A stretch of 64,000 nucleotides of DNA from the NCBI GenBank assembly GCA_021773245.1, contig JAJFKK010000038.1, positions 102 to 64,101 of the forward strand. Reading direction: 5' to 3'. This document shows positions 37,295-60,808 of this stretch, piece by piece. The position numbers were made by a program, and so were the translations under genes. The stretch is from Gammaproteobacteria bacterium (GTDB taxonomy: Bacteria; Pseudomonadota; Gammaproteobacteria; Eutrophobiales; Eutrophobiaceae). Every line of letters starts with the position of its first letter. The first letter of the stretch is position 1. The notes beneath the pieces were generated by a model. That model saw only the letters and a list, made by a program, of their open reading frames with translations, was not told the origin of the DNA and made no database searches.

Positions 37295-38596
37295 TTAATA
37301 TTTAAATTTCGTTATCGATTTTTTCATGTTTTCAAAAATCGGCTCAGAAATATGTTGAGGAAAGTCTTTAGATACACGAGAAGAAACTTCAGAAATGACG
37401 TGATCAACTTCACTGATAGATTCATCAATGGTATCTATCATTGCGGTTCCTGGAAAATCAACTTTCTTACTTTGAGCCAACCAATGTCGTGGCAACATAG
37501 TATGCCAATGATAATGTGTATTCTTACTATGTAAGGCCATGGCCATTTTTAGTTTTTGATAATCAATCTGTCTTTTGTTAGAGATAGTATATGCAGATAT
37601 AACATCATAAATAGGTGTTAAACAGAATCGGCCTCCTTGCTTTAAAAAGATACTGAAATTTTTTGCATGGCCATCAATAGCACCAAGTAACCAGAATAGA
37701 AAAATAGTTTTCATAAATTGTTTTCTTTCTTCTTCAGGTTTCAAAGAAGACTTTAAAACATCCATAATTGTTTCAATTCCCGGTCCTCCATGACTTTCAT
37801 ATTTTAAACCAGGTGCTTTTCCAGTTGCTTGGCACATATCTTCTTGCGGTATTCTGATGATCCAGTCTCCATCATCTGAAAATTCACGATCAAAACGCTC
37901 TACAATCAATACCGTAACGTCTTCAAACGTTTTTATTTCTACATTAGGAACTGGAATGTTAAATTCTTTTAAAATATTGTTGCATAGCCATTCGTTTTCA
38001 ACACTCTCACTTAAGTCAATGTTGTTATATTCGATTTTCCCTATAGGTAATTTAAAGATATGCGTTGTTGGAGTAGCACCTATTGGACGTTGCCATTTTC
38101 CATCATGCCAAAGCAAAGCCGTCTTTTCCTGTGCGCCGGCAAGTGAAATTCGAAAATCATCATCTTCCGACATGCCGAGTGGAATTGTCTTATAGTTTTT
38201 CAGTTCCTCAGCGATTTTTTTATCACTTAGAGGCGTGCCTTCAATTTTTTTTACATCAACCTCATTTTTTTCTGTTAATAATTGAATCGCACCAACACAA
38301 TCCTTTCCTATAATAGAAAGCAAATCGAATGGCCTATCTGTCTTTGCACCGAACCTAGCCTGAATACGTTCTCTGATATCTTTATTATCAGGTAAAAGGT
38401 TAGCAAAATAATTGTATACGTTATCCCCTTTATGTTTCTTTTCTGTCAGTGGTAATGATAAAGATAATGGGATGGCTAGATCTTTATGTTCTAACCATGA
38501 ATCACTATAAATAAATTCCTGCATTCCACTTTTATGTTGAATGTACTCACCAACTTCATAGCCATTCATATAAACAAACAACGATGCCATTACCAA
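37295..38596 (-). CDS. hipA: Type II toxin HipA (Ser/Thr kinase)
   Basis: 433 aa; SLAGAQEK, HAKNFS motifs; 7-nt overlap with upstream hipB. Confidence 0.9.
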   Translation of the reverse strand: MVMASLFVYMNGYEVGEYIQHKSGMQEFIYSDSWLEHKDLAIPLSLSLPLTEKKHKGDNVYNYFANLLPDNKDIRERIQARFGAKTDRPFDLLSIIGKDCVGAIQLLTEKNEVDVKKIEGTPLSDKKIAEELKNYKTIPLGMSEDDDFRISLAGAQEKTALLWHDGKWQRPIGATPTTHIFKLPIGKIEYNNIDLSESVENEWLCNNILKEFNIPVPNVEIKTFEDVTVLIVERFDREFSDDGDWIIRIPQEDMCQATGKAPGLKYESHGGPGIETIMDVLKSSLKPEEERKQFMKTIFLFWLLGAIDGHAKNFSIFLKQGGRFCLTPIYDVISAYTISNKRQIDYQKLKMAMALHSKNTHYHWHTMLPRHWLAQSKKVDFPGTAMIDTIDESISEVDHVISEVSSRVSKDFPQHISEPIFENMKKSITKFKY

Positions 38597-43469: not shown

Positions 43470-43743
43470 CGTAGGAAAAATATATTTAAATTGTGATGAA
43501 AACAGCCCACCCTGATTTTCTTAACTAAGATGCACAATGGACTTCTGGTTTTTTATTAGTTTGTAATATCTCCAATGTACTCATAAACATCATCATCAAT
43601 TTCTATAGTATTCATAATTTTTTACCTCACTAATAGAATAATTAGAGCACTCTAATTACTTAAAACTATCAATATAGATAATATTTATACGTATATTGTG
43701 TATAAACATTGACAAATATAAATATATATCAATACTTATACAC

Positions 43744-44352
43744 ATGTCTGAATCAATTAAAATTGCTGAAAAAATAATAGAACTCGCTAAAGAACAAGGA
43801 GTTATCCAAGTTCGTGATCTACGAGAAAGAGATATACACCCTGAATATCTTCGGCGGCTTTGCGAAAAAGGTAGCCTTGTGAAACTAGCCAGAGGGCAAT
43901 ATGCGCTTCCTGATCTAAATATTAGCGAAAATCATAGTCTGGTCCTAACTGCAAAATCAGCACCTAATGCAATCATATGTCTGGTATCTGCACTGCGCTT
44001 TCATAATATAGGAACTCAAGCGCCTTATGAGATTTGGATTGCCATAAAAAATAGAACAGCCAAACCTCAGGTCAGATATCCTAAGATTCGAGTTTTTTAT
44101 TACTCAGGAATGGCGTATTCAGAAGGCGTCGAAGAACACATAATCGAAAGAGTGAATGTAAAAATATACAGTCCGGCAAAAACAATTGCAGATTGTTTTA
44201 AATATCGAAATAAAATCGGAATTGATGTGGCTATTGAAGCACTACGTGATGGATGGCATGAAAATAAATTCAATATGGATGAACTATGGCATTACGCAAA
44301 AATATGTCGTGTGGCTAATATTATGAAACCCTATCTGGAATCGCTAACATGA
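43744..44352 (+). CDS. abiEi: AbiEi-family type IV antitoxin/transcriptional regulator
   Basis: Start at MSESIK; wHTH (VIQVRDL......PEYLRRL...G.L.KLARG.Y.L) typical of AbiEi; 4-nt overlap with abiEii. Confidence 0.8.
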   Translation: MSESIKIAEKIIELAKEQGVIQVRDLRERDIHPEYLRRLCEKGSLVKLARGQYALPDLNISENHSLVLTAKSAPNAIICLVSALRFHNIGTQAPYEIWIAIKNRTAKPQVRYPKIRVFYYSGMAYSEGVEEHIIERVNVKIYSPAKTIADCFKYRNKIGIDVAIEALRDGWHENKFNMDELWHYAKICRVANIMKPYLESLT

Positions 44353-45225
44353 CTAAGGAAGCAAAAAAGGATATTGCAGCTTCAGTACGGCAACGATTAT
44401 TAAATATAGCCAAAGAACAAGAAGAAGATTTTAATTTAATTCTGACGCGATATGGATTGGAGCGAATGCTCTATCGATTAAGTCAATCAGAATGGCGGGA
44501 TAAATTTTTACTTAAAGGAGCGATGTTATTTGCGCTCTGGCATGATGAACCACATCGACCTACACGCGATGCTGACTTTTTAGGTTTTGTAAATCCCGAC
44601 ATTGATAACATAACAGCCATCTTTCAATCCTTATGTAGTATTACTGTAGATGATGATGGATTGAAATTCGATCCAGAAACGGTGACAGCAGAAGAGATTA
44701 GAGAAAATCATGCTTATGAAGGCATTCGCGTACATTTAAGTGGAGAGCTATCTGGAGCCAAGATAATATTACAAATTGATATTGGCTTTGGTGATGTAGT
44801 AACGCCAGATCCGGATGAAATTGAATATCCAACATTATTAGATCAAGAAGTGCCGAAGCTTAAGGCTTATCCTGTATATACAGTCATTGCTGAAAAATTT
44901 GAAGCGATGATAAAGCTTGGAATGATAAATACGCGAATGAAAGATTATTTATAATCTATGGATATTGTTACAAAAATTTGAATTAGAAAGCCAGCTTCTT
45001 GAGGAAGCAATAAAAGCAACGTTCGATAGAAGAAAAACAGAAATACCAAAAGAAAAGCCTTTGGCCTTTAGCGAAGAATTTTATGATGACGATACAAAGA
45101 AAAAACAGTGGGCAGCATTCTTAAATAAAAATAGCATTAATAACACTGTGGAACTAAATGAGCTTGTTAAAAATTTAGGAGAATTTCTAATTCCAATAGT
45201 AAAAGCAATAAGCACTAAAAAATAA
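44349..45225 (+). pseudogene. abiEii: AbiEii/AbiGii nucleotidyltransferase toxin, disrupted by a frameshift near 44950
   Basis: ORFs 44349..44954 and 44965..45225 are N- and C-halves of one ~290-aa AbiEii; the other frame across the break reads KIIYNLWILL, restoring the family RMKD.YD.W motif. Confidence 0.75.
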
Positions 45226-45572: not shown

Positions 45573-46340
45573 ATGGATAAAAAGAACAGCCCACTAAAGG
45601 ATAAGCCTCTACGTCTTGCTGGCCAGTCTCTACAGGAAGAGATCGATAAGACCATAAATGAACAAGCACTCAATTTTATTCTCTTACCTGCATTTTTTAT
45701 CTCTTTAACTCTTTATGAAGTAATTAGATATATTCAAGGAGCAGCTCCCACCATAAGGTCAGTTACACTCTTGGGGATAGTAGCAATCATAGTCTCAGTT
45801 GTTTGTGTATTTAAGCTCGTAAAATTCAGAAAAAAAGTCAAAAACATGCGCTTGGGTCTAGATGGCGAAAAAGCCGTTGGACAGGAGTTAGAGAAACTAA
45901 GAACGCAGGGATGTATGGTCTTTCATGACATTGTCGGCGATAACTTTAATATTGATCATGTGGTTGTATCTGATAAAGGTATCTTTCTCGTTGAAACAAA
46001 AACATATTCAAAACCAAATCGTGTAAATCCAAAAGTACGTTATGAAAAAGGTAAGCTTTCTATCGATGGCTTGGGTGACATGTCAAAAATTATCACTCAG
46101 GTTAAGGCTTCTAGCACTTGGTTAAAAAGAACATTAGAAGAATCGACAGGTAAAACATTCTTAATTAAACCGGTTATTCTTTTTCCTGGATGGTTTGTTG
46201 AATCACCTAATGATTCTGAAATATGGGTTTTAGAGCCGAAACAGTTTCCTTATTATATAAGTAAGAAAAAAGAAATTGTTTCTCTGGAAGATAAGAAGTT
46301 GGCTGCGTATCATTTGAGTCGGTATATAAGGGCATTATGA
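45573..46340 (+). CDS. NERD (nuclease-related domain) protein with two N-terminal TM helices
   Basis: 255 aa; G..GE..V...L..L...G..VFHDI.....NIDHVVVS..GIFLVETK NERD pattern. Confidence 0.75.
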   Translation: MDKKNSPLKDKPLRLAGQSLQEEIDKTINEQALNFILLPAFFISLTLYEVIRYIQGAAPTIRSVTLLGIVAIIVSVVCVFKLVKFRKKVKNMRLGLDGEKAVGQELEKLRTQGCMVFHDIVGDNFNIDHVVVSDKGIFLVETKTYSKPNRVNPKVRYEKGKLSIDGLGDMSKIITQVKASSTWLKRTLEESTGKTFLIKPVILFPGWFVESPNDSEIWVLEPKQFPYYISKKKEIVSLEDKKLAAYHLSRYIRAL

Positions 46341-46537: not shown

Positions 46538-47245
46538 ATGAATATCAAGGAACTAAGCGAAGTTCTCAAAGAGACAAACTTTCAGGAGGATATGCTTCAT
46601 AGTCTTGTGGAAAAAGGATTTGGTAGTCTACCTGCAAGAGAAACTGCTCTAACTATATTAGAGTTAATCTTGCAGCATTATCCTGAATGGAAAGATAATC
46701 CTCCCGAGGACTATGAATTAGCAAGACTTCTTCGGACTTCTCCTCGAAAAATAAGAGGCTTACGTGATGATTTGGCATATAGAGATCCTAGGAAAGATGA
46801 TGATTGGTGCTTAAACGAGCTTACAGAGTTACTGAAGGGTGCAGAGAGAATCAAGGATGGTGCATATGTTACTTTTGAAATTGATGATGGTTTAGTTAGA
46901 GATTTTGCAAGAAAATTAGTGAGAAAAAATCTTGGTGTATTCGAGTCGGGACTCAATAACACTGTAGTTAAAATATCAGGAGAGCAATTCATTGCTCTTA
47001 CTATGACTATATTGCCAGAAAGTGAATTTAAAAAGCTAGAGAAAGTATTAAGTAAAGAAATAGCCAAAGAGAAAGTTAAGGATAAAGATGTTTCGCCTAT
47101 TCGATTATTCGTTAATAGTTTTATAAAGTCGGCTGGAACTCAGGCAGGAAAGAAGAGTGTCGATTTAGCATTTACAGTCTTAACGGGCGGGTTGTCTGAC
47201 GTAAAAGATGCAATTGATTATTTAAAGGAATTAATAAAAAAATAA
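46538..47245 (+). CDS. Hypothetical protein (no recognised domain)
   Basis: 235-aa ORF with AAGGAG Shine-Dalgarno; bracketed by inverted copies of the heptamer-repeat site. Confidence 0.5.
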   Translation: MNIKELSEVLKETNFQEDMLHSLVEKGFGSLPARETALTILELILQHYPEWKDNPPEDYELARLLRTSPRKIRGLRDDLAYRDPRKDDDWCLNELTELLKGAERIKDGAYVTFEIDDGLVRDFARKLVRKNLGVFESGLNNTVVKISGEQFIALTMTILPESEFKKLEKVLSKEIAKEKVKDKDVSPIRLFVNSFIKSAGTQAGKKSVDLAFTVLTGGLSDVKDAIDYLKELIKK

Positions 47246-47427: not shown

Positions 47428-50190
47428 ATGCCTACTAATAGAGAAAAAGTTCTAAATTATTTAAACAAGATTTCACCCGGCAGAGCAACCAATAACGATA
47501 TTCTTATAGCTACTGAGATAGAACCTCATCAACAAGTTTTTCAGATCACCGACAATTTGTTCCAATCGGGACAAATTCAAGGAGTAAAAAATGGTAAGGA
47601 GTGGTCGTTTTGGATTGATGAAAATTCAATAAGCGGCGACTCAGTCAATCCTGAAACAGTGAGTGCTAATATGAATCCATTAATTCGCGAGTTATTTCTT
47701 AAATATAAAGCTAATCCTAATGAAGTTTGGGTTTCTGAATATGAAGAAAGAATTAATCAAGTTAGAACATTTCGGAATAAACCAGCGTCGTTTTTAACTG
47801 AAAAAGTTTTGCACGAACTGTGGATGCAAAAAGCGAATGGTATCGCTAATGTAGGACTTGGTTTTATGTATCAAAGTGAGTTTGATGCGTTACAGGAACA
47901 GTTGCCTGAAATAACGATTAAAATTATAAATGAGCCGACCTCTGTAAAACTTGATGAGATAGAAGTTTGGGCTAAACAGCAAAAAGATTTTGGGAATCTA
48001 AAGCATATTACCTGGTCAGTAATCTATCGTGTTTTCGCTGCAGCTAACCCAGATGAGCTATGTACAATAGTTAATAAAGCAAATCTAGACCAATTAATTA
48101 AAACTCTTAATGAAAATTATGGTTTTAATATTTCCACTCAAGGAAATTGGTTTGACAGAAACTCAGCCTTGCTGAAATCCTTAAAGCAAGGAGAATTAGC
48201 TAATCAAGAAGTACATTTGATAAATACCTTTCCATGGATGCTTTATGAGTGGTTAGTGGTACAAGCTCCTGAAAGAAATGCCAGCTTATCAATGGAACAT
48301 GTGATTAGTGCAATAAATGAAATTGATGAACGCGGTGTTAATTCTGGTGAAAAGTCATCTACCTACGATCTCATTCATAATGTAAGGTGTTATCCGCCTA
48401 AACTAGTCTATTCCCTAGCGCATAAATATAAAGATGGAACAGAACTCGATCGATCTGCATTTGAGGGAGGAGAAAATACGCAATGCTTTAGTGACTTACG
48501 TGGTCTTGGCTTTATCATTGAGCGTAAGGATTTTGTTTCTGAATTACTTAAGAAATTTATTCAACAAGCTGATGAAGGCGCTAGTTTAACTACAAGAGAT
48601 TATCCTAAAACGTATTGTGGGTTAGATGTTAATGTAAGTTTTGGCCAGGGCAACTTTTCAAAGGTGCCCTGGATATCATTTTTAGGATATGGTCAAAAAA
48701 CACAGAATGGTATATACCCTGTTTATCTATATTATAAAACTATCAAGGTCCTAGTACTTGCATACGGCGTAAGTACAACAAATGAACCAGAAGTAGTATG
48801 GAAATTTCATGATCATAAAGAAACAATCCGGGATCATTTAGCAAGTGAATATGATTTTCAATTAGAAAAATATGGTTATTCTTATGTTTATTCTTCATAT
48901 CATTTGCCTACTAACCTCACTGATCCTCAAGTCACTCTGGATTTAGACACTGTGATTGCTGAATACCATAAACTGATGGGCGGTACACCAACAGTTTCTC
49001 CCGCTCCTGTTCCGCCAGAACCTGAGCCACCTGTAGAACCAATCTTAGATCCTGAAGCTATATCCAAATCATTTTCTGCTGCTCTGAGTAATTCGAATGT
49101 TCGTTTTGGTGAATCCCATGATGCTAGAGTTAGTGCTTTCGTTTCAAGCTTGATGACAAAACCTCTAGTTATTCTCACCGGCTTGTCTGGTTCAGGCAAA
49201 ACGCAAATCGCCATCCGTTTTGGGGAGTGGCTAGGTAAGGATCGAATGTTAGTAGCGCCAGTTCGTCCTGATTGGACAGGTGCAGAGGCGCTATTTGGAT
49301 ACGAAGATGCACTAAAGCCAATAGTTAATGGCAGAGCTTCTTGGGCTGTGCCAGATACATTAGCATTTATACTCAAAGCTTCGAATAACCCACATTGGCC
49401 GTATTTACTTGTTTTAGATGAAATGAACTTGGCTCACGTCGAACGATATTTTGCCGATGTGTTATCTGGAATGGAATCTGATCAACCTTGCTTGCCTAAT
49501 TTAATTCAAGAGAGTGATGGTTGTTGGCGTATTGCTGATCATGGTCCTGATAAAATTACATTTCCTAAGAATATATTTGTTGTCGGTACGGTAAACGTTG
49601 ATGAAACGACTTATATGTTTTCACCAAAAGTACTCGATCGAGCCAATACGTTTGAGTTTCGGGTGACCACCGATGACTTGGCTGATGATTATATTAAACC
49701 TATACAATGCAAACCAGGTGAAATCGGATTGGTCAGAGGGTTTTTGGAAGTTGGGCGTGATGATGCATGGCATAGTCAGAATGTCTTTACAGAAGCAACA
49801 GATCTTTCTCAACAACTGCGCCATGTACATAGCATGTTAGCTGCACATGGATTTGAGTTTGGCCATCGGGTATTTTATGAGTCCCAACGCTTCGCTGCAA
49901 TTTATGGTGCCACTGGAGAATTCAATTTATCAAATGTATTAGATTTGATTGTGATGCAAAAACTATTGCCACGATTACACGGTTCTCGTCGCCGACTTGA
50001 AGAACTGCTGCGTGCCTTTGCAAAATTTTGTTTTAATAACACCATCGAAACAAAAGAGGAAAGCATAGCCTCAATATTTGAGCCGGAGGATAAAAATACT
50101 GCCGATGCAAAATTGCCCGTTTCATTTGATAAGTTAAAACGTATGTTACGTAGTTTACGAGCCAATCAATTTACGAGTTTTACGGAATAA
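47428..50190 (+). CDS. McrB-like AAA+ GTPase with long N-terminal extension (wHTH, YPPK-type module, DUF3578/MrcB_N-like module)
   Basis: 920 aa; Walker A GLSGSGKT, Walker B/McrB signature LLVLDEMNLAHVERYFADVLS, GTVNVDETT...S.KVLDRA; residues ~390-450 GQGNFSKVPWISFL...GIYPVYLYY resemble DUF3578. Confidence 0.8.
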   Translation: MPTNREKVLNYLNKISPGRATNNDILIATEIEPHQQVFQITDNLFQSGQIQGVKNGKEWSFWIDENSISGDSVNPETVSANMNPLIRELFLKYKANPNEVWVSEYEERINQVRTFRNKPASFLTEKVLHELWMQKANGIANVGLGFMYQSEFDALQEQLPEITIKIINEPTSVKLDEIEVWAKQQKDFGNLKHITWSVIYRVFAAANPDELCTIVNKANLDQLIKTLNENYGFNISTQGNWFDRNSALLKSLKQGELANQEVHLINTFPWMLYEWLVVQAPERNASLSMEHVISAINEIDERGVNSGEKSSTYDLIHNVRCYPPKLVYSLAHKYKDGTELDRSAFEGGENTQCFSDLRGLGFIIERKDFVSELLKKFIQQADEGASLTTRDYPKTYCGLDVNVSFGQGNFSKVPWISFLGYGQKTQNGIYPVYLYYKTIKVLVLAYGVSTTNEPEVVWKFHDHKETIRDHLASEYDFQLEKYGYSYVYSSYHLPTNLTDPQVTLDLDTVIAEYHKLMGGTPTVSPAPVPPEPEPPVEPILDPEAISKSFSAALSNSNVRFGESHDARVSAFVSSLMTKPLVILTGLSGSGKTQIAIRFGEWLGKDRMLVAPVRPDWTGAEALFGYEDALKPIVNGRASWAVPDTLAFILKASNNPHWPYLLVLDEMNLAHVERYFADVLSGMESDQPCLPNLIQESDGCWRIADHGPDKITFPKNIFVVGTVNVDETTYMFSPKVLDRANTFEFRVTTDDLADDYIKPIQCKPGEIGLVRGFLEVGRDDAWHSQNVFTEATDLSQQLRHVHSMLAAHGFEFGHRVFYESQRFAAIYGATGEFNLSNVLDLIVMQKLLPRLHGSRRRLEELLRAFAKFCFNNTIETKEESIASIFEPEDKNTADAKLPVSFDKLKRMLRSLRANQFTSFTE

Positions 50191-50193
50191 ACA

Positions 50194-52485
50194 ATGCCTG
50201 CCTGCGAAGCAACGCAGTTAGCTGTTTTAGATCAAGCCAATATTGCTCGCGCTTGTATTAGTTTGTCATTATTACCAAATAAAAAGTCGGATAAGAACCT
50301 CGTTCCGCCCTTAATCGTCTTAGATAAACATTCTGAATCAAACGCAGTTCCCCCAGTTCAATTACTTGAAGGTTGTGAATACCGCTATGAGTTTATTGAA
50401 TTAAAAGATATCAAGGGCGTAATCACAACCGATCATGCTGATGTCTTTCAGCCTGATACAAACGATGGTCGAAGTGGGCGAGTTCGGCCGGAACTGTATA
50501 CGGGGACGCTTCCAATTAGAGTCTTTCTCGATGGGAAAGATTTTGGTTCCTTCTCCCTTGAGGTGCGTTCTAGAAAACTAGATTATTTAAAAGAATACCG
50601 ATGGATGGTCAGGGATCTGGCTGAGCAAATGTCAGAAATAGTAATGAATCGTTTTGCACCTGCAATTCAACGTTTCAGTATAGATGACACAAAAGATGCG
50701 CAAACGCTTTATCAACGGTTTGCTTTTCTTAAATCTTTAATTGGCAGTGAAGAATTTCAAGCTGCTTTAAGTGAGATTGTTCATCATCCTCATGTTGCCT
50801 GGATTGATTTTCATGAGCCTGTACATCCGAGCAAGGGACTCAAAGCGGGTTCCTATGTCTCCCGTCAATTGGCCAAGAGTGGTCCAAGGCAAGAATGGAA
50901 ACATGGAATTATCTCAACCATTCCTCAAAATATTTATCGACATATAACAGAAGTAACTGTTGATACCACGCCGAATCGATTCGTTAAGTTTGCTATTGAA
51001 CGTTGGCGCGATGTGGTGGCAAGAATTGGTGAGTTACTTGCTGCGCAATCACAGAATCCAGTAATTGATAGGGGTGTACGGGAAGTAATTGAAATCCTTG
51101 ATTATCTCGATGCTATTTTAGCTGAAGGTTTGTTTAGAGAATTAGGAACGCTCGATAACTTTCCTGCAGATAACCAAGTGCTGCACAAACGGGAAGGTTA
51201 TCGAGATGTGTTTCGAGCCTATATCCAATTTGATGTGGCGGCAAAGTTATCATGGGATGGCGGCGAAGATGTTTATGGCGCGGGTAAACAAGACGTTGCG
51301 ACTTTATATGAATATTGGGTCTTCATGAAACTAGCGCAATTGATTTCTGAACTTTGTGATACGCCTTTTAAATTTTCTGATTTGATTAAGGTTGAAGAGG
51401 ATGCTTTAAATGTAATCCTTAAAAAAGGGAGGCGATGTGTATTGAAAGGGATTGTAGAACGCCGCGGGCGAATGATGGATGTGGAGCTCTGGTTCAATCG
51501 TACCTTTGGCAATAGAGCTCAAGGTGAAGGTTCTTGGTCACGACAAATGCGACCGGATTATTCACTAAAGATTTCCCCATCGAAAGATGAAGTTGCTCAT
51601 TTTGAGCCGGTTTACGTGCATTTTGATGCCAAATATCGAATTGACCGAATAGAAGATGTATTTAGGCCAGGCGAAGAAGATAGCTCTGAGTATGAAGTAA
51701 CTAACAGTAATTCGCCTGCTGCTACTGCAAAACGTGATGATCTATTAAAAATGCATGCCTATCGAGATGCTATACATCGTTCAGCCGGCGCCTATGTTTT
51801 ATACCCTGGTACTGAAGTAAAGGTGTATCGAGAATATCATGAACTCCTACCTGGCTTGGGGGCATTTGCCTTAAGACCTACCGAAGATGGAGAGGCAGCA
51901 GGCAAACTACCCTTGGAACGATTCATCGAAGATGTGCTTGAGCATGTTGCTTCTCAGATCACTCAGCATGAGCGAGGGCGATATTGGGTTAAAGAAGCTT
52001 ATGCCGAACAAGATTATTTCACTAGCGAAATACCTGCGGCATCTTTTCTAAAGCACCCTCCAGCAGATACGCAAGTGTTATTAGGTTACGTTAAGAATAA
52101 GAAGCATTGGGACTGGATAGAGAAAAACAAACTTTATAACGTTAGAGGCTACGGTAAAAGAGGGAAGATTGGATTAGGCTCAAAAGAACTGGGTTCGGAC
52201 ATAATTCTCTTGTCATGCCCTAGCGAAAAGCTAGTAGCAATTGCACGAATCATTGGTTCACCTGAATTGCATACCAAAGAAGAGATGGAAGAAAATAATT
52301 ATCCTAAACCAAAAGGAATTTACTATTGTTTCAATTTGGAAATGATTATTGATGAATATTGGTGTGGATTTGTAAGCAGTGAATTGATTGAAAAAGTACG
52401 GTCTACATTAACTCCCAATAAAGAGCCTATTGTTATGTCATGGTTAAAATTGATTCGAAGTATAGAAGTAAAAAATGACGTATAG
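50194..52485 (+). CDS. McrC-like PD-(D/E)xK nuclease with DUF2357-like N-terminal region and extra C-terminal module
   Basis: 763 aa; starts 3 nt after the McrB-like stop; LYEYWVF, RPDYSL, VHFDAKYR (D-x-K), LLKMHAYRDAI, AYVLYPG. Confidence 0.7.
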   Translation: MPACEATQLAVLDQANIARACISLSLLPNKKSDKNLVPPLIVLDKHSESNAVPPVQLLEGCEYRYEFIELKDIKGVITTDHADVFQPDTNDGRSGRVRPELYTGTLPIRVFLDGKDFGSFSLEVRSRKLDYLKEYRWMVRDLAEQMSEIVMNRFAPAIQRFSIDDTKDAQTLYQRFAFLKSLIGSEEFQAALSEIVHHPHVAWIDFHEPVHPSKGLKAGSYVSRQLAKSGPRQEWKHGIISTIPQNIYRHITEVTVDTTPNRFVKFAIERWRDVVARIGELLAAQSQNPVIDRGVREVIEILDYLDAILAEGLFRELGTLDNFPADNQVLHKREGYRDVFRAYIQFDVAAKLSWDGGEDVYGAGKQDVATLYEYWVFMKLAQLISELCDTPFKFSDLIKVEEDALNVILKKGRRCVLKGIVERRGRMMDVELWFNRTFGNRAQGEGSWSRQMRPDYSLKISPSKDEVAHFEPVYVHFDAKYRIDRIEDVFRPGEEDSSEYEVTNSNSPAATAKRDDLLKMHAYRDAIHRSAGAYVLYPGTEVKVYREYHELLPGLGAFALRPTEDGEAAGKLPLERFIEDVLEHVASQITQHERGRYWVKEAYAEQDYFTSEIPAASFLKHPPADTQVLLGYVKNKKHWDWIEKNKLYNVRGYGKRGKIGLGSKELGSDIILLSCPSEKLVAIARIIGSPELHTKEEMEENNYPKPKGIYYCFNLEMIIDEYWCGFVSSELIEKVRSTLTPNKEPIVMSWLKLIRSIEVKNDV

Positions 52486-52869
52486 ATGTCTATGTCAAAA
52501 ACAGATTGCCCTTTTTGTAATATATCTAATTCTGAAATTTTAATTCGGAACGAGTTATGTTATGCGCGATTGGATCTGTATCCAGTTTCTGAAGGCCATG
52601 TTTTGATTATTCCGTTTCGTCATTTTTCAAATTATTTTGATGTTACACAAGATGAAAAAAATGCCATTTGGTCTCTTGTAGATGAAATGAAACAAGTCAT
52701 CAGACAGGAACACAGTCCAGATGGTTATAATATCGGGATGAATGTAGGTCGAGCAGCAGGACAAACTGTCCCCCACTTACATGTTCATATCATTCCAAGA
52801 TACGAAGGCGATGTTGAGAATCCTAAAGGTGGCGTTCGAGGAGTGATACCGGTCAAACAAAAATATTAG
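52486..52869 (+). CDS. HIT-family nucleotide hydrolase/transferase
   Basis: 127 aa; histidine triad HLHVHIIP; CPFC N-terminus; ATG directly abuts the McrC-like stop (TAGATG). Confidence 0.85.
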   Translation: MSMSKTDCPFCNISNSEILIRNELCYARLDLYPVSEGHVLIIPFRHFSNYFDVTQDEKNAIWSLVDEMKQVIRQEHSPDGYNIGMNVGRAAGQTVPHLHVHIIPRYEGDVENPKGGVRGVIPVKQKY

Positions 52870-52885
52870 TTTTCTAATTAATTTA

Positions 52886-53038
52886 ATGAAACTTTTTACA
52901 CAAAATAAAGAGCAAATAAAGACCTTTGACGACTGGGCCAATATTTTTCTAGGTACTAAAAAGGCCAAGCATTGGAAAGAGGGACGCAGTGCTTACTCAA
53001 TTGCTGTCTTTATTATGAATCATAATGGCCAAGCGTAG
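52886..53038 (+). pseudogene. 50-codon ORF, probable truncated gene remnant
   Basis: MKLFTQNKEQIKTFDDWANIFLGTKKAKHWKEGRSAYSIAVFIMNHNGQA-stop; the HWK.GRSA..A motif looks like the N-terminus of a longer family; assignment uncertain. Confidence 0.3.
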
Positions 53039-53092
53039 TTTATGCTGGTGAAGAAATAATTATCACTAATAATTTATAAAACGAGATAAATA

Positions 53093-56000
53093 ATGCATAG
53101 GGAAAGTGGCATATCACGAACATTTGACCTCTTCGCAGAAGAAGAGAAGATTGATAGTCATAAGATCCCGGGTTGGCCTTCCTACGCACGTTTCCCACTT
53201 AACATAGACGGCTATCATGTTGAAGATGTTGTTTTAAATGATCTAAAATCCAGTAAATCACCACTCATCATTACAGGTTTTGCTAGTTTAGATAACCTTA
53301 TTGATTTTTGTTTTGATGCCCATATAAATAATCCAAAAATTCATACACGATTACTAATTGGTCAGGAACCTTTTCCTTCTCGTAGAGAAACCTTTTCAGT
53401 TAACCAAAACCATTTGACTGAAGAAGTAGAAGCCTATTGGTTGGAACGTGGCATTTCATTGATTTATTCAGCCAAGTTAATTCATATGGTTGAGCTATTA
53501 AAGAATGGAAAAATTGAAGCGCGATATATGCCTGGTAGTCGGCGTCTTCATGCAAAGATATATTGTGGCGATGAAGCAGCAACGGTTGGTTCATCCAATT
53601 TTACCCATCCGGGACTAAAAGGACAGATTGAAGCTAATGCTCGTTTTGAAAAAGATGGGCGTTCTAGTCGGTTTGAAGAACTCACTACCATAGCTGAAAA
53701 TTATTGGACGTTGGGAAGAAGTTACCAGGATCAACTAATCGAATTATTAGAAAAATTATTACGCGTTGTAACATGGGAGGAAGCTTTAGCGCGAGCTTGT
53801 GCTGAGCTATTAGAAGGTGAGTGGGCGGAAAAATATATTCGAGGTGAATACTTATCGGGTTCAGGTAGTTTATGGCCTTCCCAAAAACAGGGTATAGCGC
53901 AAGCACTTACAATATTATCGACTCAAGGTAGTGTTTTAATCGCTGATGCTACCGGTGCTGGGAAAACCAAGATGGGTACTTACTTAATAGGTGCTGTGCA
54001 GGATCATATCTTACGTACAGGCAGAATGCGTCAAGGTAAAGCATTAATGATTTGTCCTCCAACAGCAGAATCAAATTGGAAACGGGAATCAAACTTATCA
54101 GGTGTTGCTTTAGATCCTTATTCACATGGAATTTTCAGTAATGAGAGAACAAAAGGACATGATGATACTGTTGATGCTCTACGTAGAGCGCAAATCCTTT
54201 CAGTTGATGAAGGGCATAACTTCCTTAATTTTAAATCTCAAAGAACTCAAAAACTATTAAGAAATATGGCAGACCATGTCATGTTGTTTACTGCTACGCC
54301 AATTAATAAAAGCGTGAATGACCTACTGAGAATGGCCGATATGCTTGGTGCCGATAATTTATCTGAATCAGTTATTTCGGCATTTAAGAAGATGTTAGGT
54401 GTTCGAAATCTGAGTAGACAATTATCAGAGAAAGAACTTGATGAGTTAAGGACGGAAATAAAAAAATTTACAGTTCGACGTACAAAGAAGCAGTTGAATA
54501 AGCTTGTTGATAGAGAGCCGGATAAATATACAGATATTAATGGTAAGCAATGCCGTTTTCCGAAGCATTTGCCAAAAGTCTACAGTCTATATGAATCTGA
54601 TGATGATAAAGAAATTGCAAATAAAATAAAAAAACTAGCAAGTGAATTATATGGCGTCACTCATTTTGTTAAAACAATTAAAATGCCTGATATTTTTATT
54701 AAACAAGGTTTGACAGAAGAAAAATATTTACAAGGGCGTTTGGCTTCGGCAAAAAGTTTAGCCCGATATATGATCATGTCTTGTTTAAGGTCATCACGAG
54801 CAGCACTGATTGAGCATGCTGTTGGTACAGATGAAGCAATTGAGTTTAGTCAAATAACGGGTTTTCATAAAAGCAACAAAAGCAAAGGGATGACGGAGCA
54901 AATAAAATCAATAAAAGATAAGTTGCCCGAGAATCAATTAAGCATCGACCTTCCTCTATGGTTAACTAATAAAAAAGATCATGGAGATGCTTGTGCTAAT
55001 GACTTCAGAATTTATAGAAAAATTGCTGATCTTGCAGCGCACATGAGTGATAGTAGAGAAATATCTAAGGCTAAAAGATTAATGAGCTTATTAAAAAAGC
55101 ATGATCTTGTTTTAGCATTTGATAGGAAGCCAATTACTTTAGCTGTCATTAATCAAAAAATAAGTCTTAATAAAGATAATAGGGTGCTTGTTGCATGGGG
55201 AGAAAAAGGGAGTGACAAGGATAAAGTTATAAAAACATTTGCATTTGGTTCAGAAGAAAAAGGTGTTATCGGTCTTTGTTCAGATAGTCTTGCCGAAGCA
55301 GTAAATCTTCAACAGGCATCGTGTTTATTACACTTGGATATGCCAAGTGTAGTTCGGATAGCCGAGCAGAGAGCTGGAAGAATAGACCGTATGGATAGTC
55401 CCCATAAGAATATAGAAATATGGTGGCCGGATGATGCGGAAGAATTTTCATTGACATCCGATGAACGATTTATTGAACGATATGACACAGTAGAAAAATT
55501 ATTAGGTTCAAATATGCCTTTGCCAGAAATTATGAAACGGCACAGTAGAAAAGTAGTAACGACAAAAGACATGATTGAAGAAGTTGAGTTAAAAGAAAAT
55601 ATTTGGGATGGAATAGACGACGCATTTTCATCCGTTCGTTCATTAGTTGAAGGTGAAACTGCTATAGTTTCTACAGAAGTATACGAAAGGTATGTATCCG
55701 TTAAAGAACGTGTTTTATCAAGAGTGAGTCTTGTTAGATCTCATTCTCCGTGGGCATTGTTTTGTATTACATCAGGTAGTTTCGGTTCGCCAACATGGGT
55801 ATTACTTCCTAGTTTAGGTGGGCAGGCAGAAACAGAACTTAGTCGTATTGTTGATAAAATACGTAAGCGTTTAACTGATGACGTGGAAGATGTGAAGCTT
55901 GATGAGAATAGTGCAAAGTTACTGGATCATTTTTTAAATCGACTGTCTGTAAGTGAACGGAGTTTATTGTCCAGAAAGAAACAAAGAGCATTGGAAGAAA

Positions 56001-56335
56001 TGGAACTTATAATTGGTAAGCTAAAAACAAAGAGTGAGAGTAAAAAACATATTGATCACTTGCTAGATGTTGAGAAGATGTTAACTAATCCACCAAAAGA
56101 TAAACAGCCAGATTGGGATGAAGTTGCTTCTAGATGGCTGGATGTGATTAGGCCAGTTTGGTTTGATAAATTAAATAATCCTAGAAACAAACCACTTCTT
56201 TTAAAAGATATTCGAAATGAACTGATGAAAGAACCTAAATGGCTAGTGAGTGAAATTGTAGAACATTTTAGACGTTTTCCGATATTGCCTGGGCCAGAAG
56301 AAAGGATTAAGGCTTGTATTATTGGTGTGAATTAA
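53093..56335 (+). CDS. PLD (HKD) nuclease domain fused to SF2 (SNF2/DEAD-like) helicase
   Basis: 1080 aa; single HKD motif HAKIYCGDEAATVGSSNF (H153); helicase motifs ADATGAGKT, DEGHNF, TATPINKS, QRAGRIDR; ~280-aa uncharacterised C-terminus. Confidence 0.8.
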   Translation: MHRESGISRTFDLFAEEEKIDSHKIPGWPSYARFPLNIDGYHVEDVVLNDLKSSKSPLIITGFASLDNLIDFCFDAHINNPKIHTRLLIGQEPFPSRRETFSVNQNHLTEEVEAYWLERGISLIYSAKLIHMVELLKNGKIEARYMPGSRRLHAKIYCGDEAATVGSSNFTHPGLKGQIEANARFEKDGRSSRFEELTTIAENYWTLGRSYQDQLIELLEKLLRVVTWEEALARACAELLEGEWAEKYIRGEYLSGSGSLWPSQKQGIAQALTILSTQGSVLIADATGAGKTKMGTYLIGAVQDHILRTGRMRQGKALMICPPTAESNWKRESNLSGVALDPYSHGIFSNERTKGHDDTVDALRRAQILSVDEGHNFLNFKSQRTQKLLRNMADHVMLFTATPINKSVNDLLRMADMLGADNLSESVISAFKKMLGVRNLSRQLSEKELDELRTEIKKFTVRRTKKQLNKLVDREPDKYTDINGKQCRFPKHLPKVYSLYESDDDKEIANKIKKLASELYGVTHFVKTIKMPDIFIKQGLTEEKYLQGRLASAKSLARYMIMSCLRSSRAALIEHAVGTDEAIEFSQITGFHKSNKSKGMTEQIKSIKDKLPENQLSIDLPLWLTNKKDHGDACANDFRIYRKIADLAAHMSDSREISKAKRLMSLLKKHDLVLAFDRKPITLAVINQKISLNKDNRVLVAWGEKGSDKDKVIKTFAFGSEEKGVIGLCSDSLAEAVNLQQASCLLHLDMPSVVRIAEQRAGRIDRMDSPHKNIEIWWPDDAEEFSLTSDERFIERYDTVEKLLGSNMPLPEIMKRHSRKVVTTKDMIEEVELKENIWDGIDDAFSSVRSLVEGETAIVSTEVYERYVSVKERVLSRVSLVRSHSPWALFCITSGSFGSPTWVLLPSLGGQAETELSRIVDKIRKRLTDDVEDVKLDENSAKLLDHFLNRLSVSERSLLSRKKQRALEEMELIIGKLKTKSESKKHIDHLLDVEKMLTNPPKDKQPDWDEVASRWLDVIRPVWFDKLNNPRNKPLLLKDIRNELMKEPKWLVSEIVEHFRRFPILPGPEERIKACIIGVN

Positions 56336-56432: not shown

Positions 56433-57560
56433 ATGGATAAAACCCTTAGAATAGAAGCAATAAAGCAAGCCATGGATAAGGCTGGCCTTAACCAAGCTGC
56501 GCTCTCTGCAAAGCTGAGTGTTTCAAAAGAAATCGTTTCCAAATGGCTTAGTGGTGTTAAGTTCCCGCGTCCAGATAAATTACTTAGATTATCTAGTGCT
56601 TTGGAATTAAATTACGATGAACTCGTTGAGATTATTTCTCAGGTTAATGAACCGATAATAGCTTTTCGTAAAAAAGGTAGTACAAAAACAACAGAAAAAC
56701 ATATTAATAGAGCTAAAAATATAGGTCGTTTGTTATCTTGTTTAGTTTCTTATTTGCCCTTTGATGAATTTGTTCAGCCATCAAAATTAAAAAATCCCAA
56801 ACTTGAGTATGAATATGTTCAATCCTTTACTTTTAAAGTTCGTAAAGAAATAGGATTGCGAATAGATCAGGTAATTGATTTTACTGATTTAATTCATACA
56901 TTTCATGAATTACAGGCAGTAATTGTCCCTGTTATGTGGGGAAAGAAGAATGTACATGAAAATGCACTTCATATTTATTTGCCTGATTCAATGACGACTT
57001 GGGTTTATTTGAACTTAGATACAGAGTTACATGATTTTAAGTTTTGGATGGCTCATGAATTAGGTCATGTATTTAGTCCTGATCTAAGAGGAAATGAAGC
57101 AGAAGATTTTGCTGATGCATTTGCCGGAGCATTATTATTCCCTCAAGAATTGGCCAAGCAGGCATATAAAAGTATATCTTCAAGTAAAAGCGATAAAATA
57201 AGAATTTCTAAAATTAGAGACTATGCACTTGAATATTCAATATCTTTAATCTCTGTATATAAAGAAATTAATAATTATGCTATTTATAATAGTTTGCCTA
57301 AGATAGATTTAGGAAATAGTTTGTTTGGGGCAAATACAAATTTTAATAAAATGTTTGCAACTGTAAGTGGTTCATTATTTGAAAATGAATCTCCAAATGC
57401 TGAAGATTATATTCAAAGAACTTCAGATGTTTTTGAAACTCCTTTTTTTGATACTTTGAAAAAGTATCTAGTTGAACACGGAAAGTCAGCAAGTTATGTA
57501 CAGTCTATTCTTGATACTCCGCTAATTGACGCAAAGGAACTGTATGCGGAGTTGACTTGA
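56433..57560 (+). CDS. XRE HTH fused to ImmA/IrrE (M78) metallopeptidase
   Basis: 375 aa; N-terminal HTH (LNQAALSAKLSVSKEIVSKWLSG), HExxH motif MAHELGHVF. Confidence 0.8.
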   Translation: MDKTLRIEAIKQAMDKAGLNQAALSAKLSVSKEIVSKWLSGVKFPRPDKLLRLSSALELNYDELVEIISQVNEPIIAFRKKGSTKTTEKHINRAKNIGRLLSCLVSYLPFDEFVQPSKLKNPKLEYEYVQSFTFKVRKEIGLRIDQVIDFTDLIHTFHELQAVIVPVMWGKKNVHENALHIYLPDSMTTWVYLNLDTELHDFKFWMAHELGHVFSPDLRGNEAEDFADAFAGALLFPQELAKQAYKSISSSKSDKIRISKIRDYALEYSISLISVYKEINNYAIYNSLPKIDLGNSLFGANTNFNKMFATVSGSLFENESPNAEDYIQRTSDVFETPFFDTLKKYLVEHGKSASYVQSILDTPLIDAKELYAELT

Positions 57561-58120
57561 TGTCGCAGTCAAAAATTCTAATTGATAGTAATTCCTATTT
57601 TAGATTAGCCAAAAGTATACACCCGCTTTTGAATGAGGTGTTTGGTGAATTAGAATATTGTTTATATGTACTAAAGGAACTGGAAAAAGAATATGACCGA
57701 AACCCTCGTTTAAAAACTAAGTTTCATTGGGTAAATGAAGATGAATATTTTCAGAATAGAAAAAAGAAAGTAAATATTTCAAATAAAGAAAAAAAAGAAA
57801 TAGAAAGGACTATAGGATTTTTAGAAGGATATAAAAATGACAATTGCTTAGGAACTTCTCCAATAGATATAAAATATCTAGCAACGGCTTTTATTTTAGA
57901 TATACCTGTTGTAACAGATGATATAGATATGCTTAACCTAGGAAAAGCATTTGATATTGTAACTATGACTAGTATGGACTTGCTGAAGTTAATGTTAGAA
58001 AGCGATCATATAAACATTGAAAAAGTAAGAGAAACAGTATCGTATTGGAAATATATAAAAGATATACCAGCAAACTATAAAAAGAATTACAAAAAATTAT
58101 TTAAAGAAAATGCTCCTTAA
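57560..58120 (+). CDS. PIN-like (DUF4411-like) putative nuclease/toxin
   Basis: ATG overlaps the ImmA stop (TGATG); ILIDSNSYF N-terminus and VVTDDIDM acidic motif consistent with a PIN-like fold. Confidence 0.55.
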   Translation: MSQSKILIDSNSYFRLAKSIHPLLNEVFGELEYCLYVLKELEKEYDRNPRLKTKFHWVNEDEYFQNRKKKVNISNKEKKEIERTIGFLEGYKNDNCLGTSPIDIKYLATAFILDIPVVTDDIDMLNLGKAFDIVTMTSMDLLKLMLESDHINIEKVRETVSYWKYIKDIPANYKKNYKKLFKENAP

Positions 58121-58305: not shown

Positions 58306-59298
58306 TCAAGCAAAATTCTTATCAAATGGCATACCACTTTTCAAAACCCCATAAATAATGTGAACGAGTTTTCGCATAGCAGCACCAACAATCGCCATTT
58401 TAGATTTACCTGCTTTTGTTAATCGCAACTTTAATTCTATGATTAATGGGTTATGTTTTAACGCGACTAATGCCGGCATAAAGAAGGCCTTGCGTAAATT
58501 AGAACGCCCCATCTTTGACATCCTTGCACGTGAACGTAATGACGTTCCGGATTCTCGTGTTTTCGGTGCAACGCCAATAAATGCCGCCAAGGCTTTTGCA
58601 TTTTTGAATTGAGTGATGTTACCAAACTCGGAAAGAATGACATTGATAGTGGCTTCACCAATGCCTGGAATGCTTTCCAGTAATACTTTTCTTTTCTTCA
58701 TATCGGGGTGATCATCGATGTGTTGTTTAATCATTTTCTTTACCTTCTTTATCTCTTTATCAAGATACGCAAGGTGATGATGTAGTTGTTCTGCAATGAG
58801 ATCACTGGCACCTTCAAGCCGATTACTTTCTTGTCGATGCATATTTCCCAATGCCTCTAAGCGTCGTACCAGGTCACGACATTGGCGTATTTCCACTGGT
58901 AGTGGTTGCCAGAGCGAGGGCTCCAGTGCGAGACAAAAACGCGCAATCAAACTCGCATCAACTTTGTCTGTTTTAGTACGCAGTTGTTCACTTTGTGCAA
59001 AGCCTTTGACACGCGCTGGATTGACAATACTAATATTTATTTCGTTGTCATATAAATATTCAGCTAAGGCTTCACCATAAACACCAGTGGCTTCCATACA
59101 CGCATGCAGTTCCTGAGCATCGTGTTTACTGAGCCAAGCCAGTAATGTTTGATAGCCTTTTGTATTATTAAAGAATTTCTTGTGTTTTAGTTTGTTACCT
59201 ATCAATAGCGCAACATCAAACTTCTGTTTGTATATATCGATACCCAGTGTTGTTTTGGTTGTTATCATTGTTCTGCTTACCTCGTGATGCAGGTTCAT
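58306..59298 (-). CDS. IS110-family DEDD transposase/recombinase
   Basis: 330 aa; LGIDI.K, MEATG.YGE, VNPARVKGFA, KTDKVDA, SIPGIGE, G..P....SG. Confidence 0.9.
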   Translation of the reverse strand: MNLHHEVSRTMITTKTTLGIDIYKQKFDVALLIGNKLKHKKFFNNTKGYQTLLAWLSKHDAQELHACMEATGVYGEALAEYLYDNEINISIVNPARVKGFAQSEQLRTKTDKVDASLIARFCLALEPSLWQPLPVEIRQCRDLVRRLEALGNMHRQESNRLEGASDLIAEQLHHHLAYLDKEIKKVKKMIKQHIDDHPDMKKRKVLLESIPGIGEATINVILSEFGNITQFKNAKALAAFIGVAPKTRESGTSLRSRARMSKMGRSNLRKAFFMPALVALKHNPLIIELKLRLTKAGKSKMAIVGAAMRKLVHIIYGVLKSGMPFDKNFA

Positions 59299-59986: not shown

Positions 59987-60808
59987 CTAGCGCCAGGACG
60001 CCGGGTCCAGATTATAGAATCTTTTCAGTTGTACATATAAGTCCGGCAATTTTTTCTGCATCTGTCTGGGTTTTTCGAAGAAGGATTCTGTTGCTACGGC
60101 AAAGAATTCCGCTGGCGAGACTGCGCCGTATTCATCGATAACAGAATTTTTCCCTTTTTCTACTCTAATCAATAGTGATTCATATTCTTTGCTTAGCACT
60201 TTGGCCCATTCTGCGTAATGGGAAATGTCGCGAAGTACCGGCAGGCCATCCATGCTGTCATTTGCCTCATCCAGCTTATGGGCGAATTCATGTAGCACGA
60301 CATTGTGTCCTTCATTACTATTTTTTGTTCCGCGCATAACATCTGCCCACGATAAGACGATGGGGCCACGGTGCCAGGACTCGCCTGCTCTTACGCTTTC
60401 TTTTTCGGTTACAAGCAAGCCATGATAATGGATTTCCTTGCTGACATAGGTATTCGGATAAACCAGGATAGAGGTAAAGCCCGGAAAGCATTCTTTATCC
60501 CGTTGTAACAGGAGCAGGCAGGCATTCCCGGCGATGGTGATGCGGATCTCGTCGGTGATCTCCAAACCCGCACAGCCAAAGAATTCTTTTTCATCAAGGA
60601 AGATATTGATGCGGCCATACAGTTCTGGGCGCAGGTCTTCCGGCAGCAAGGCGTAGAGTGTGACGTTACGTTCCAGTAACGGCATCCATTCGGGAGGTAA
60701 TGGTTTTAGGAACAGCCTGTTGCGTCGGGCGCGTTGTAATCGTGAGTGACTCACCCAGATCAGGATGATGATAACGATTATGCTGAATAAGATAAGGATA
60801 GGGGACAT
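59987..60808 (-). CDS. mtfA: MtfA-like M90 zinc peptidase
   Basis: 273 aa; N-terminal TM, HEFAHKLD zinc motif, GPIVLSW, SPAEFFAV.TE.FF as in E. coli MtfA. Confidence 0.8.
   Translation of the reverse strand: MSPILILFSIIVIIILIWVSHSRLQRARRNRLFLKPLPPEWMPLLERNVTLYALLPEDLRPELYGRINIFLDEKEFFGCAGLEITDEIRITIAGNACLLLLQRDKECFPGFTSILVYPNTYVSKEIHYHGLLVTEKESVRAGESWHRGPIVLSWADVMRGTKNSNEGHNVVLHEFAHKLDEANDSMDGLPVLRDISHYAEWAKVLSKEYESLLIRVEKGKNSVIDEYGAVSPAEFFAVATESFFEKPRQMQKKLPDLYVQLKRFYNLDPASWR

Follow-up and report, generated by a model that had tools for sequence, protein, structure and literature searches.

A candidate one-gene motor nuclease that fuses a PLD nuclease domain to an SNF2 ATPase

Introduction

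What is the role of a protein that carries a phospholipase D (PLD)-type nuclease domain and an SNF2-type ATPase in one polypeptide? The question is raised by a forward-strand gene at 53093-56335 in 64,000 nt of contig JAJFKK010000038.1, from a gammaproteobacterial genome (assembly GCA_021773245.1). We refer to this whole stretch of DNA as the window, to the gene as the PLD-SNF2 gene and to its product as P0001; all positions are those of the window. A first-pass annotation, made from the letters of the sequence, offered two alternatives for the gene: a stand-alone translocating nuclease, or the effector arm of the McrBC-like genes upstream.

Based on comparison of sequences, we judge, with a probability of roughly 0.6, that the gene encodes an autonomous ATP-dependent motor nuclease that acts as a one-gene barrier against foreign DNA, whether of phage or other origin. 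This reading is drawn from an intact HKD nuclease and SNF2 ATPase, a C-terminal domain (CTD) found only in this family, and a patchy distribution in regions rich in defence and toxin-antitoxin genes, with no obligatory partner gene. The family is unnamed and uncharacterised. It represents the PLD-plus-helicase motor-nuclease design in a new form, whose function we infer.

Results

P0001 contains a single HKD motif and a complete SNF2 ATPase

The first-pass annotation described the gene as a single-polypeptide fusion of a PLD(HKD) nuclease and a superfamily 2 (SF2) helicase, with one HKD motif at residues 153-170, helicase motifs I, II, III and VI, and about 280 C-terminal residues without a recognisable domain. 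Each element was borne out: the reading frame is open over 1080 amino acids (aa), every quoted motif was found, and the C-terminal stretch corresponds to residues 808-1080. The parts of the gene are given below. Domain boundaries were placed by us from an AlphaFold2 (AF2) model and the conservation profile.

53047-53092, forward strand: 46-bp 5' leader that travels with the PLD-SNF2 gene (blastn against locus L004)
53093-56335, forward strand: whole PLD-SNF2 gene, open throughout; P0001, 1080 aa, PLD(HKD)-SNF2-CTD
53171-53722, forward strand: N-terminal PLD-superfamily nuclease domain, residues 27-210 (Pfam PLDc_2 and RE_NgoFVII; profile matches)
53549-53602, forward strand: single HKD motif, HAKIYCGDEAATVGSSNF, residues 153-170 (motif location and conservation)
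53723-53857, forward strand: acidic helical linker, residues 211-255 (AF2 model and conservation)
53858-54637, forward strand: SNF2 ATPase lobe 1, residues 256-515 (Pfam SNF2-rel_dom; Foldseek)
53942-53968, forward strand: Walker A, ADATGAGKT, residues 284-292 (motif location)
54206-54223, forward strand: motif II, DEGHNF, residues 372-377 (motif location)
Within SNF2 lobe 1, forward strand: motif III, TATPINKS, residues 400-407 (motif location)
54638-55072, forward strand: helical insertion between the RecA lobes, SNF2-like, residues 516-660 (AF2 secondary structure)
55073-55492, forward strand: SNF2 ATPase lobe 2, residues 661-800 (Pfam Helicase_C; RapA profile match)
55367-55390, forward strand: motif VI, QRAGRIDR, residues 759-766 (motif location)
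55514-56332, forward strand: family-specific CTD, residues 808-1080 (AF2 model)

The nuclease domain was evaluated using Pfam, the catalytic motif and a family profile. PLDc_2 scored 25.7 bits over residues 131-195, slightly below its cut-off of 27 bits, and RE_NgoFVII, the PLD domain of restriction enzyme NgoFVII, matched weakly. P0001 contains one HKD motif, which fits HxK(x)4D(x)nG(S/G)xN: residues H153, K155, D160, G166, S167 and N169 are present and conserved, with a D-to-G spacing of 5 residues, not 6. Fifty family members were used to build a profile of the N-terminal domain; searched against the sequences of solved structures in the PDB, it matched the poxvirus nicking-joining enzyme (5.5e-6) and BfiI (1.5e-4) and, more weakly, SauUSI (7CLG, 0.029) and R.NgoVII (0.23). 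These matches place the PLD domain in the nuclease branch of its superfamily, and motif and profile agree in assigning P0001 to the Nuc/BfiI/NgoAVII/SauUSI type.

The central region is an SNF2 motor. Pfam identified SNF2-rel_dom at 61.4 bits (cut-off 24.9) over residues 360-513 and Helicase_C at 26.7 bits (cut-off 23.5) over residues 663-767; past approximately residue 800, P0001 had no Pfam match. A full-length AF2 model based on a 50-sequence alignment had a mean predicted local distance difference test score (pLDDT) of 81.3 and a predicted template modelling score of 0.77. Compared with the PDB using Foldseek, this model matched RapA, SMARCAD1, Mot1, Rad5, CSB, Chd1 and ISWI with E-values of 1e-13 to 1e-11. 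Similarly, the family profile matched RapA at 5e-10 in a search of PDB sequences. Motifs, insertions and fold match thus all assign P0001 to the SNF2/Swi2 group of SF2 ATPases.

Conservation was counted in 118 full-length representatives of clusters formed at 50% identity. Helicase motifs I, II, III and VI are invariant (118/118), as is each of Q759, R760, R763 and R766. In the HKD motif, the histidine, lysine and asparagine are each conserved in at least 113 of the 118 (H153 in 114, K155 in 113 with four further Arg, and N169 in 114), while G166 and S167 occur in all. Both enzymatic centres are therefore under strong purifying selection. The linker has the highest mean pairwise identity of all segments, 44%, and includes invariant residues W228, E230, A235, E238, L240-G242, W244 and A245.

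The C-terminal domain is confined to the family

Modelled separately on 43 sequences, the 273-residue CTD gave a pLDDT of 81.8. In this model, residues 808-935 form a three-stranded sheet with flanking helices and residues 936-1080 form a basic helical bundle with an isoelectric point of 9.2. The region matched no family in Pfam or PHROGs, and its profile matched no PDB sequence. Foldseek searches with the model returned nothing significant among PDB folds (best E 1.2) or in BFVD (best E 0.05). When proteins of 150-478 aa were searched for the CTD in other architectures, only broken fragments of the PLD-SNF2 family were returned. We also considered the sheet as a degenerate PD-(D/E)xK fold and rejected this reading, as no conserved acidic/Lys pattern was present.

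The CTD is the most variable folded segment of the protein, with a mean pairwise identity of 27-31% versus 35-44% for the other domains. Despite this variability, it is homologous across the whole family. As modelled, the CTD is a folded, conserved and family-specific domain without a recognisable fold. Our guess is that it is the prime candidate for the non-self sensor, target-recognition or regulatory module of the enzyme.

In a few family members (P0242, P0142/P0161 and P0206), the other end of the protein is extended by DUF7226, by a histidine phosphatase domain or by an nSTAND1 NTPase of some 400 aa. The nSTAND1 NTPases are a domain class typical of immune sensors, and the N-terminal extensions are possible alternative sensor or regulator modules. 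Our literature search yielded no paper on DUF7226.

The family is large, patchily distributed and accessory

A word-indexed search returned more than 1276 full-length clusters of homologues at 90% identity. Nearly all were 1075-1090 aa long and aligned over 97-100% of P0001. An exhaustive HMMER search yielded 396 clusters at 50% identity with E <1e-30. Where homologues are named, they are called 'helicase', 'SNF2-related protein', 'superfamily II DNA or RNA helicase' or 'hypothetical protein', and the annotation of one is evidently wrong. We found no paper describing the family.

Among 41 related genomes, the PLD-SNF2 gene was present in one, and none of the 22 further genomes from that genus had it. 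When one genome per species was scanned with a pattern, relatives were identified in 252 stretches, mostly from Gammaproteobacteria. Further carriers were Desulfuromonadales, Desulfobulbales, Cyanobacteria, Burkholderiales and one genome of the Acidimicrobiia (Actinomycetota). Searches of PLSDB plasmids, INPHARED phages and IMG/VR viral contigs found no relatives. As only one of the 41 relatives carries it, the gene is not a housekeeping helicase; it is an accessory, horizontally moving chromosomal gene. A conserved housekeeping repair role without defence-island association is what the first-pass annotation had named as fatal to its proposal.

These data bear directly on the idea that P0001 is a housekeeping, repair or transcription protein of the RapA kind, with a degenerate PLD domain and no part in defence. 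The best matches among solved structures, RapA and eukaryotic remodellers, speak for it. Against this stand its absence from 40 of the 41 related genomes and its patchiness across phyla, the strong conservation of the HKD residues, and the setting of the gene among AbiE, NERD, McrBC-like and Rosmer-like modules and an IS110 transposase. We find the idea scarcely credible, and the distribution practically refutes it.

Most family loci have no recurrent partner

To compare neighbourhoods, open reading frames (ORFs) were called within 8 kb on each side of 54 family loci and clustered by BLASTP. With the family itself excluded, the largest cluster of neighbouring proteins was represented at 4 of the 54 loci. 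A Pfam tally of the nearest neighbours included ResIII, SWI2_SNF2 (HsdR), N6_N4_Mtase, AbiEii, AbiEi, Fic, HipA, Mrr_cat, Uma2, WYL and McrBC, each in 2-4 loci, together with island-boundary genes of ordinary kind. For example, one copy of the gene lies beside a Type I HsdR and an Mrr-like gene, another follows HipBA and precedes a relaxase, and a third follows an MmeI-like enzyme, a DEAD helicase and a T5orf172 gene.

The closest homologue, at locus L004, shares 88% protein identity with P0001 and has wholly different neighbours. Using blastn, the window from 44 to 60 kb and L004 had a single high-scoring segment pair in common, 53047-56335 at 80.5% identity, and nothing else. The homology begins 46 bp before the start codon and ends with the stop codon. 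Because it ends at the gene plus 46 bp, and the neighbours are otherwise unshared, the DNA comparison indicates that the unit of inheritance is the single PLD-SNF2 gene, with no obligatory partner. The alternative of a stand-alone nuclease is thus favoured by a pattern in which no partner recurs in more than 4 of the 54 loci.

The McrBC-like genes in the window are a local association

The second alternative of the first-pass annotation would make P0001 the effector of a four-gene system with an McrB-like GTPase, an McrC-like protein and a HIT protein. These genes share with the PLD-SNF2 gene a 16-kb island that is bounded by housekeeping genes. The features around the PLD-SNF2 gene are as follows.

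42023-43393: PpnN, left island boundary
43696-44954: AbiEi/AbiEii pair
45573-46340: NERD-domain protein
46538-47245: unknown gene
47428-50190, forward strand: McrB-like GTPase, 920 aa, MrcB_N plus AAA (PADLOC PDC-M26A, 3e-43)
50194-52485, forward strand: McrC-like protein, 763 aa, DUF2357 plus PD-(D/E)xK (PDDEXK_7; Pfam)
52486-52869, forward strand: HIT protein, 127 aa
56433-57560: XRE-type helix-turn-helix (XRE-HTH) protein with M78 (ImmA/IrrE) peptidase, 375 aa (a dozen PADLOC RmrA models, E down to 4e-13)
57557-58120: 187-aa ORF overlapping the end of the 375-aa gene by 4 bp
58306-59298, reverse strand: IS110-family transposase, right island edge
59987-60808: M90 peptidase, right island boundary

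The four genes of the supposed system are adjacent and on the same strand, the McrB-like protein matches the PADLOC candidate PDC-M26A, and no terminator was detected between any of the four, although the promoter and terminator scan was judged uninformative. Spacing, however, sets the PLD-SNF2 gene apart. The upstream trio is nearly contiguous: the McrC-like gene starts 3 bp past the McrB-like stop, and the HIT start follows immediately after the McrC-like stop. A 223-bp gap containing a gene remnant then separates the HIT gene from the PLD-SNF2 gene. In addition, the McrC-like protein has a PD-(D/E)xK nuclease of its own, and the DNA shared with L004 stops 46 bp upstream of the start codon.

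Across the 54 loci, McrBC-type genes lay within 8 kb at three, in varying positions and on varying strands. The combination of McrB-like, DUF2357/PD-(D/E)xK and HIT genes was found beside no other family member at these loci. The comparative data therefore largely refute a four-gene McrBC/HIT composite, which we consider highly improbable, and of the two alternatives originally put forward, the effector arm is the one that the data do not support.

The remnant in the gap is a 50-codon ORF at 52886-53038, MKLFTQNKEQIKTFDDWANIFLGTKKAKHWKEGRSAYSIAVFIMNHNGQA. The sequence looks like the surviving N-terminal part of a longer gene and so hints at an earlier insertion or deletion here. The HIT protein also matches the model for the Thoeris-associated HIT protein ThsC, and a HIT hydrolase as third gene of an McrBC-like system may merit separate study. 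Downstream, the RmrA models are ones that we take to represent the RosmerTA antitoxin, and 56433-58120 appears to be a toxin-antitoxin defence pair of the RosmerTA type, distinct from the PLD-SNF2 gene. Outside the island, about 5 kb to its left, 37295-38596 encodes a HipA kinase toxin.

A subset of loci has the gene behind restriction genes

Although most loci fit a stand-alone gene, the first-pass annotation did not foresee a subset in which Type III or Type I restriction-modification genes are stably followed by the PLD-SNF2 gene as third member. In 38 of 50 loci the gene upstream runs in the same direction, and in about 29 of 50 the one downstream runs in the opposite direction; the PLD-SNF2 gene thus often comes last in a transcription unit. 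The order res - mod - PLD-SNF2, with gaps of 3-19 bp, was observed at L013, L018, L062 and the truncated L010 (triad coordinates: L013:3155-11231, L018:2982-11240 and L062:599-10337). The three genes have diverged in step, with identities of 56-58% for Mod, 65-68% for Res and 55-60% for PLD-SNF2, and this concordance implies long co-inheritance as a unit. The triads are a stable three-gene variant of Type III restriction-modification with a second motor nuclease.

Other restriction genes occupy the same place elsewhere. A canonical HsdR of Type I is directly upstream in L001 and L077, overlapping in the latter, and at L057 and L061 this place is taken by an HsdR-like helicase, whose gene overlaps by 4 bp at L061. 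The upstream gene that overlaps at L047 and L058 encodes a Fic protein. On a maximum-likelihood protein tree, context types do not cluster, and the Type III context requires at least three changes.

These loci suggest a rival in which the protein is an accessory third subunit of Type III and Type I restriction-modification systems, recruited by the restriction enzyme or acting after it to shred DNA that the partner has recognised, with the host protected by the partner's methylation. The copy in the window would then be an orphan, either idle or working with another local system. The tightly spaced res-mod-PLD-SNF2 loci with their concordant divergence, the four loci with HsdR or HsdR-like genes and the frequent position at the end of a transcription unit favour this rival. 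However, a directly adjacent restriction gene is missing from about 80% of the 54 loci. Moreover, the abutting or overlapping upstream genes also include Fic, HipA, AbiEii and T5orf172, a variety more in keeping with a cassette that lacks a promoter and inserts at operon ends than with one specific partner. The scatter of contexts on the tree points the same way, and the host genome lacks a restriction-type methylase, yet its PLD-SNF2 gene is intact with all catalytic residues. We consider a general third-subunit role unlikely. Two readings fit the restriction contexts themselves: a promoter-less gene that settles at the 3' ends of defence or toxin operons, or a functional affinity for restriction systems. 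The lack of a convincing promoter upstream of the gene in the window agrees with the first; we retain the second as the main rival.

In the host assembly, which is 96.6% complete, we found no Type III Mod homologue, no N6_N4_Mtase (PF01555) and no C5 DNA methylase. The methylase matches obtained were one Dam-like gene (C165:11709-12413) and one marginal N6_Mtase match of 20 bits. If the PLD-SNF2 enzyme is active, protection of the host by a dedicated methylase is thus unlikely. As circumstantial evidence, the methylase-poor genome agrees with a Type IV-like mode that responds to a foreign feature, and with toleration of the neighbouring McrBC-like system. Such a genome also fits a carrier of modification-dependent restriction systems.

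P0001 falls below threshold for the named defence systems tried

We compared P0001 with PADLOC 2.0 (2023), NCBIfam 20 (2026), Pfam and PHROGs. No named system or family was matched above threshold by the whole protein or by its C-terminus. The PADLOC comparison had been suggested in the first-pass annotation, for which membership of homologues in an already named single-gene system would have refuted the proposal; no PADLOC 2.0 or NCBIfam model reached threshold. The scores of P0001 against the closest defence models were as follows.

DpdE: 61.8 bits; cut-off 500
DrmD: 53-59 bits, partial, best PADLOC match; cut-off 610
NF042964 (PLD anti-phage protein): 33.4 bits; cut-off 1100
HmaA model: 27 bits, partial, helicase lobe 2 only
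PADLOC PLD_Helicase: 19 bits, partial match only
ZacB: 18.9 bits, partial match only

SauUSI is among the known enzymes closest in plan. It depends on 5-methylcytosine or 5-hydroxymethylcytosine (5mC/5hmC), and DUF3427 is its C-terminal target-recognition domain. The enzyme, from Staphylococcus aureus, is one of the ATP-dependent restriction enzymes of Type IV (PDB 7CLG) and acts autonomously as a dimer of PLD-helicase chains (PMC7913695; also PMC3141236). Like P0001, SauUSI has an N-terminal single-HKD PLD domain, a central SF2 motor and an extra C-terminal domain, and it is encoded by one gene without a methylase partner. The motor of P0001, unlike that of SauUSI, is of the SNF2 type. SauUSI was absent among the 50 best fold matches listed for P0001 and from whole-protein searches of PDB sequences. 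Its DUF3427 is likewise absent from P0001, whose CTD has no recognisable fold. Pfam also detected no DUF6361 or NOV_C in P0001.

The NF042964 and PADLOC PLD_Helicase models presumably represent MtsD. MtsD, of the MANTIS system (formerly Gao_RL), is a PLD-SF2 dimer with one shared PLD active site (bioRxiv 10.64898/2026.09.23.753747). It resembles P0001 in having a PLD nuclease and an SF2 ATPase in one polypeptide, but it requires MtsA, MtsB and MtsC (AAA+, DUF3870 and methylase), and neighbours of this kind are absent here. Membership in MANTIS was rejected based on the score of 33.4 bits versus 1100 and the lack of an MtsA/B/C-type operon.

The Azaca system (ZacA-ZacB-ZacC) includes PLD and SF2 proteins and prefers modified T4 DNA; its cleavage is dependent on ATP and Walker A and involves no methylase (bioRxiv 10.1101/2025.07.10.664194). 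By combining a PLD nuclease with an SF2 helicase, Azaca resembles the PLD-SNF2 family and is a precedent for methylase-less defence. It comprises three separate proteins, of which ZacA (DUF6361) is needed, whereas P0001 is a single fused polypeptide. Membership was rejected: ZacB scored 18.9 bits, no ZacC occurred among the 20 PADLOC matches, and neither P0001 nor its neighbours contain DUF6361.

Class 1 DISARM has the same two modules in separate genes, the SNF2 protein DrmD and the PLD protein DrmC; in P0001 they are fused and a CTD is added. The DrmD score was 58.7 bits versus 610, and no DISARM methylase or DrmA/DrmB (DUF1998) accompanies the PLD-SNF2 gene. A search of the host genome found no DUF1998 (PF09369) protein, and membership in DISARM, Dpd and Druantia was rejected on this basis. 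For Dpd, the DpdE score of 61.8 bits versus 500 and the absence of dpd genes nearby led to the same decision. HmaA is an SNF2 helicase with a C-terminal PD-(D/E)xK nickase that protects against T4 when expressed alone (PMC11232893). It also unites an SNF2 motor and a nuclease in one protein; unlike in P0001, the nuclease is of a different superfamily and lies at the opposite end. Membership in Hma was rejected based on the 27-bit score, the absence of NOV_C and the lack of a conserved (D/E)xK in the CTD sheet. Finally, END nucleases, in which a PLD domain is joined to a C-terminal sensor that varies, are, like SauUSI, Azaca and HmaA, a precedent for defence by such designs (bioRxiv 10.1101/2025.03.31.646159).

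Discussion

The features of P0001 suggest how an autonomous motor nuclease might work. A single HKD motif is half an active site: Nuc, BfiI, SauUSI and MtsD dimerise to form one metal-independent centre. By analogy, and because its one motif supplies half an active site, two P0001 protomers would pair via their PLD domains to create one metal-independent catalytic centre. SNF2 ATPases translocate on intact double-stranded DNA (dsDNA) without unwinding it. The PLD-bridged homodimer would thus carry two SNF2 motors, and ATP hydrolysis could either reel dsDNA past the dimer or move the dimer along it. Cleavage may follow triggering of the motor, a collision or stalling. P0001 would thereby operate in the manner of SauUSI, MtsD, Azaca or HmaA. 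Single-HKD PLD nucleases cut via a phosphohistidine intermediate without metal, and in P0001 the two strands would be cut sequentially through a phosphohistidine at H153.

An enzyme of this kind must spare the host chromosome. The CTD, we would guess, keeps the nuclease off host DNA as a sensor, target-recognition or regulatory module. Recognition of some property of foreign DNA, for example a modified base, an end or an unusual structure, appears likelier than protection by host methylation, since no restriction-type methyltransferase was found in the host and about 80% of loci lack adjacent restriction genes. This discrimination is the least supported step of our best explanation.

Several observations weigh against our best explanation. 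First, a promoter scan detected no convincing sigma-70 promoter upstream of the PLD-SNF2 gene and thus no promoter of its own. Second, at approximately 9-10 of the 54 loci, the gene comes immediately after restriction genes of Type III or Type I, sometimes overlapping them, and the in-step divergence of the Type III triads fits a partner-dependent role, at least in that sub-lineage. Third, the CTD is unlike the known readers of modified bases (SRA, PUA/EVE, DUF3427 and winged helix), and both of its halves are only mildly charged.

A bolder possibility, which we offer tentatively, is that the family constitutes a new class of PLD restriction enzyme, encoded by one gene and driven by an SNF2 motor. 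The CTD, with its novel fold, would be a reader of some mark of foreign DNA, for instance a hypermodified base, a DNA end or a replication structure. The gene would spread without a promoter to the 3' ends of operons, among them Type III, Type I, Fic, HipA and AbiE operons. In such settings the enzyme might also serve as a second-stage shredder, a general one acting on DNA that the upstream system has already marked.

The motor nuclease that combines PLD and helicase modules is proving to be a recurrent design in defence, represented by SauUSI, MtsD of MANTIS, Azaca and DrmC/DrmD of DISARM. The PLD-SNF2 family would add to these a widespread version that is encoded by one gene, is free of a methylase and is driven by an SNF2 motor, with hundreds of clusters in at least four phyla. 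The defence-annotation models used here leave this family without a name. The Type III res-mod-PLD-SNF2 triads provide a tractable case for studying how a second motor nuclease might cooperate with a classical restriction enzyme. If the CTD is indeed the non-self sensor, it would be a new reader of DNA features and a compact candidate tool.

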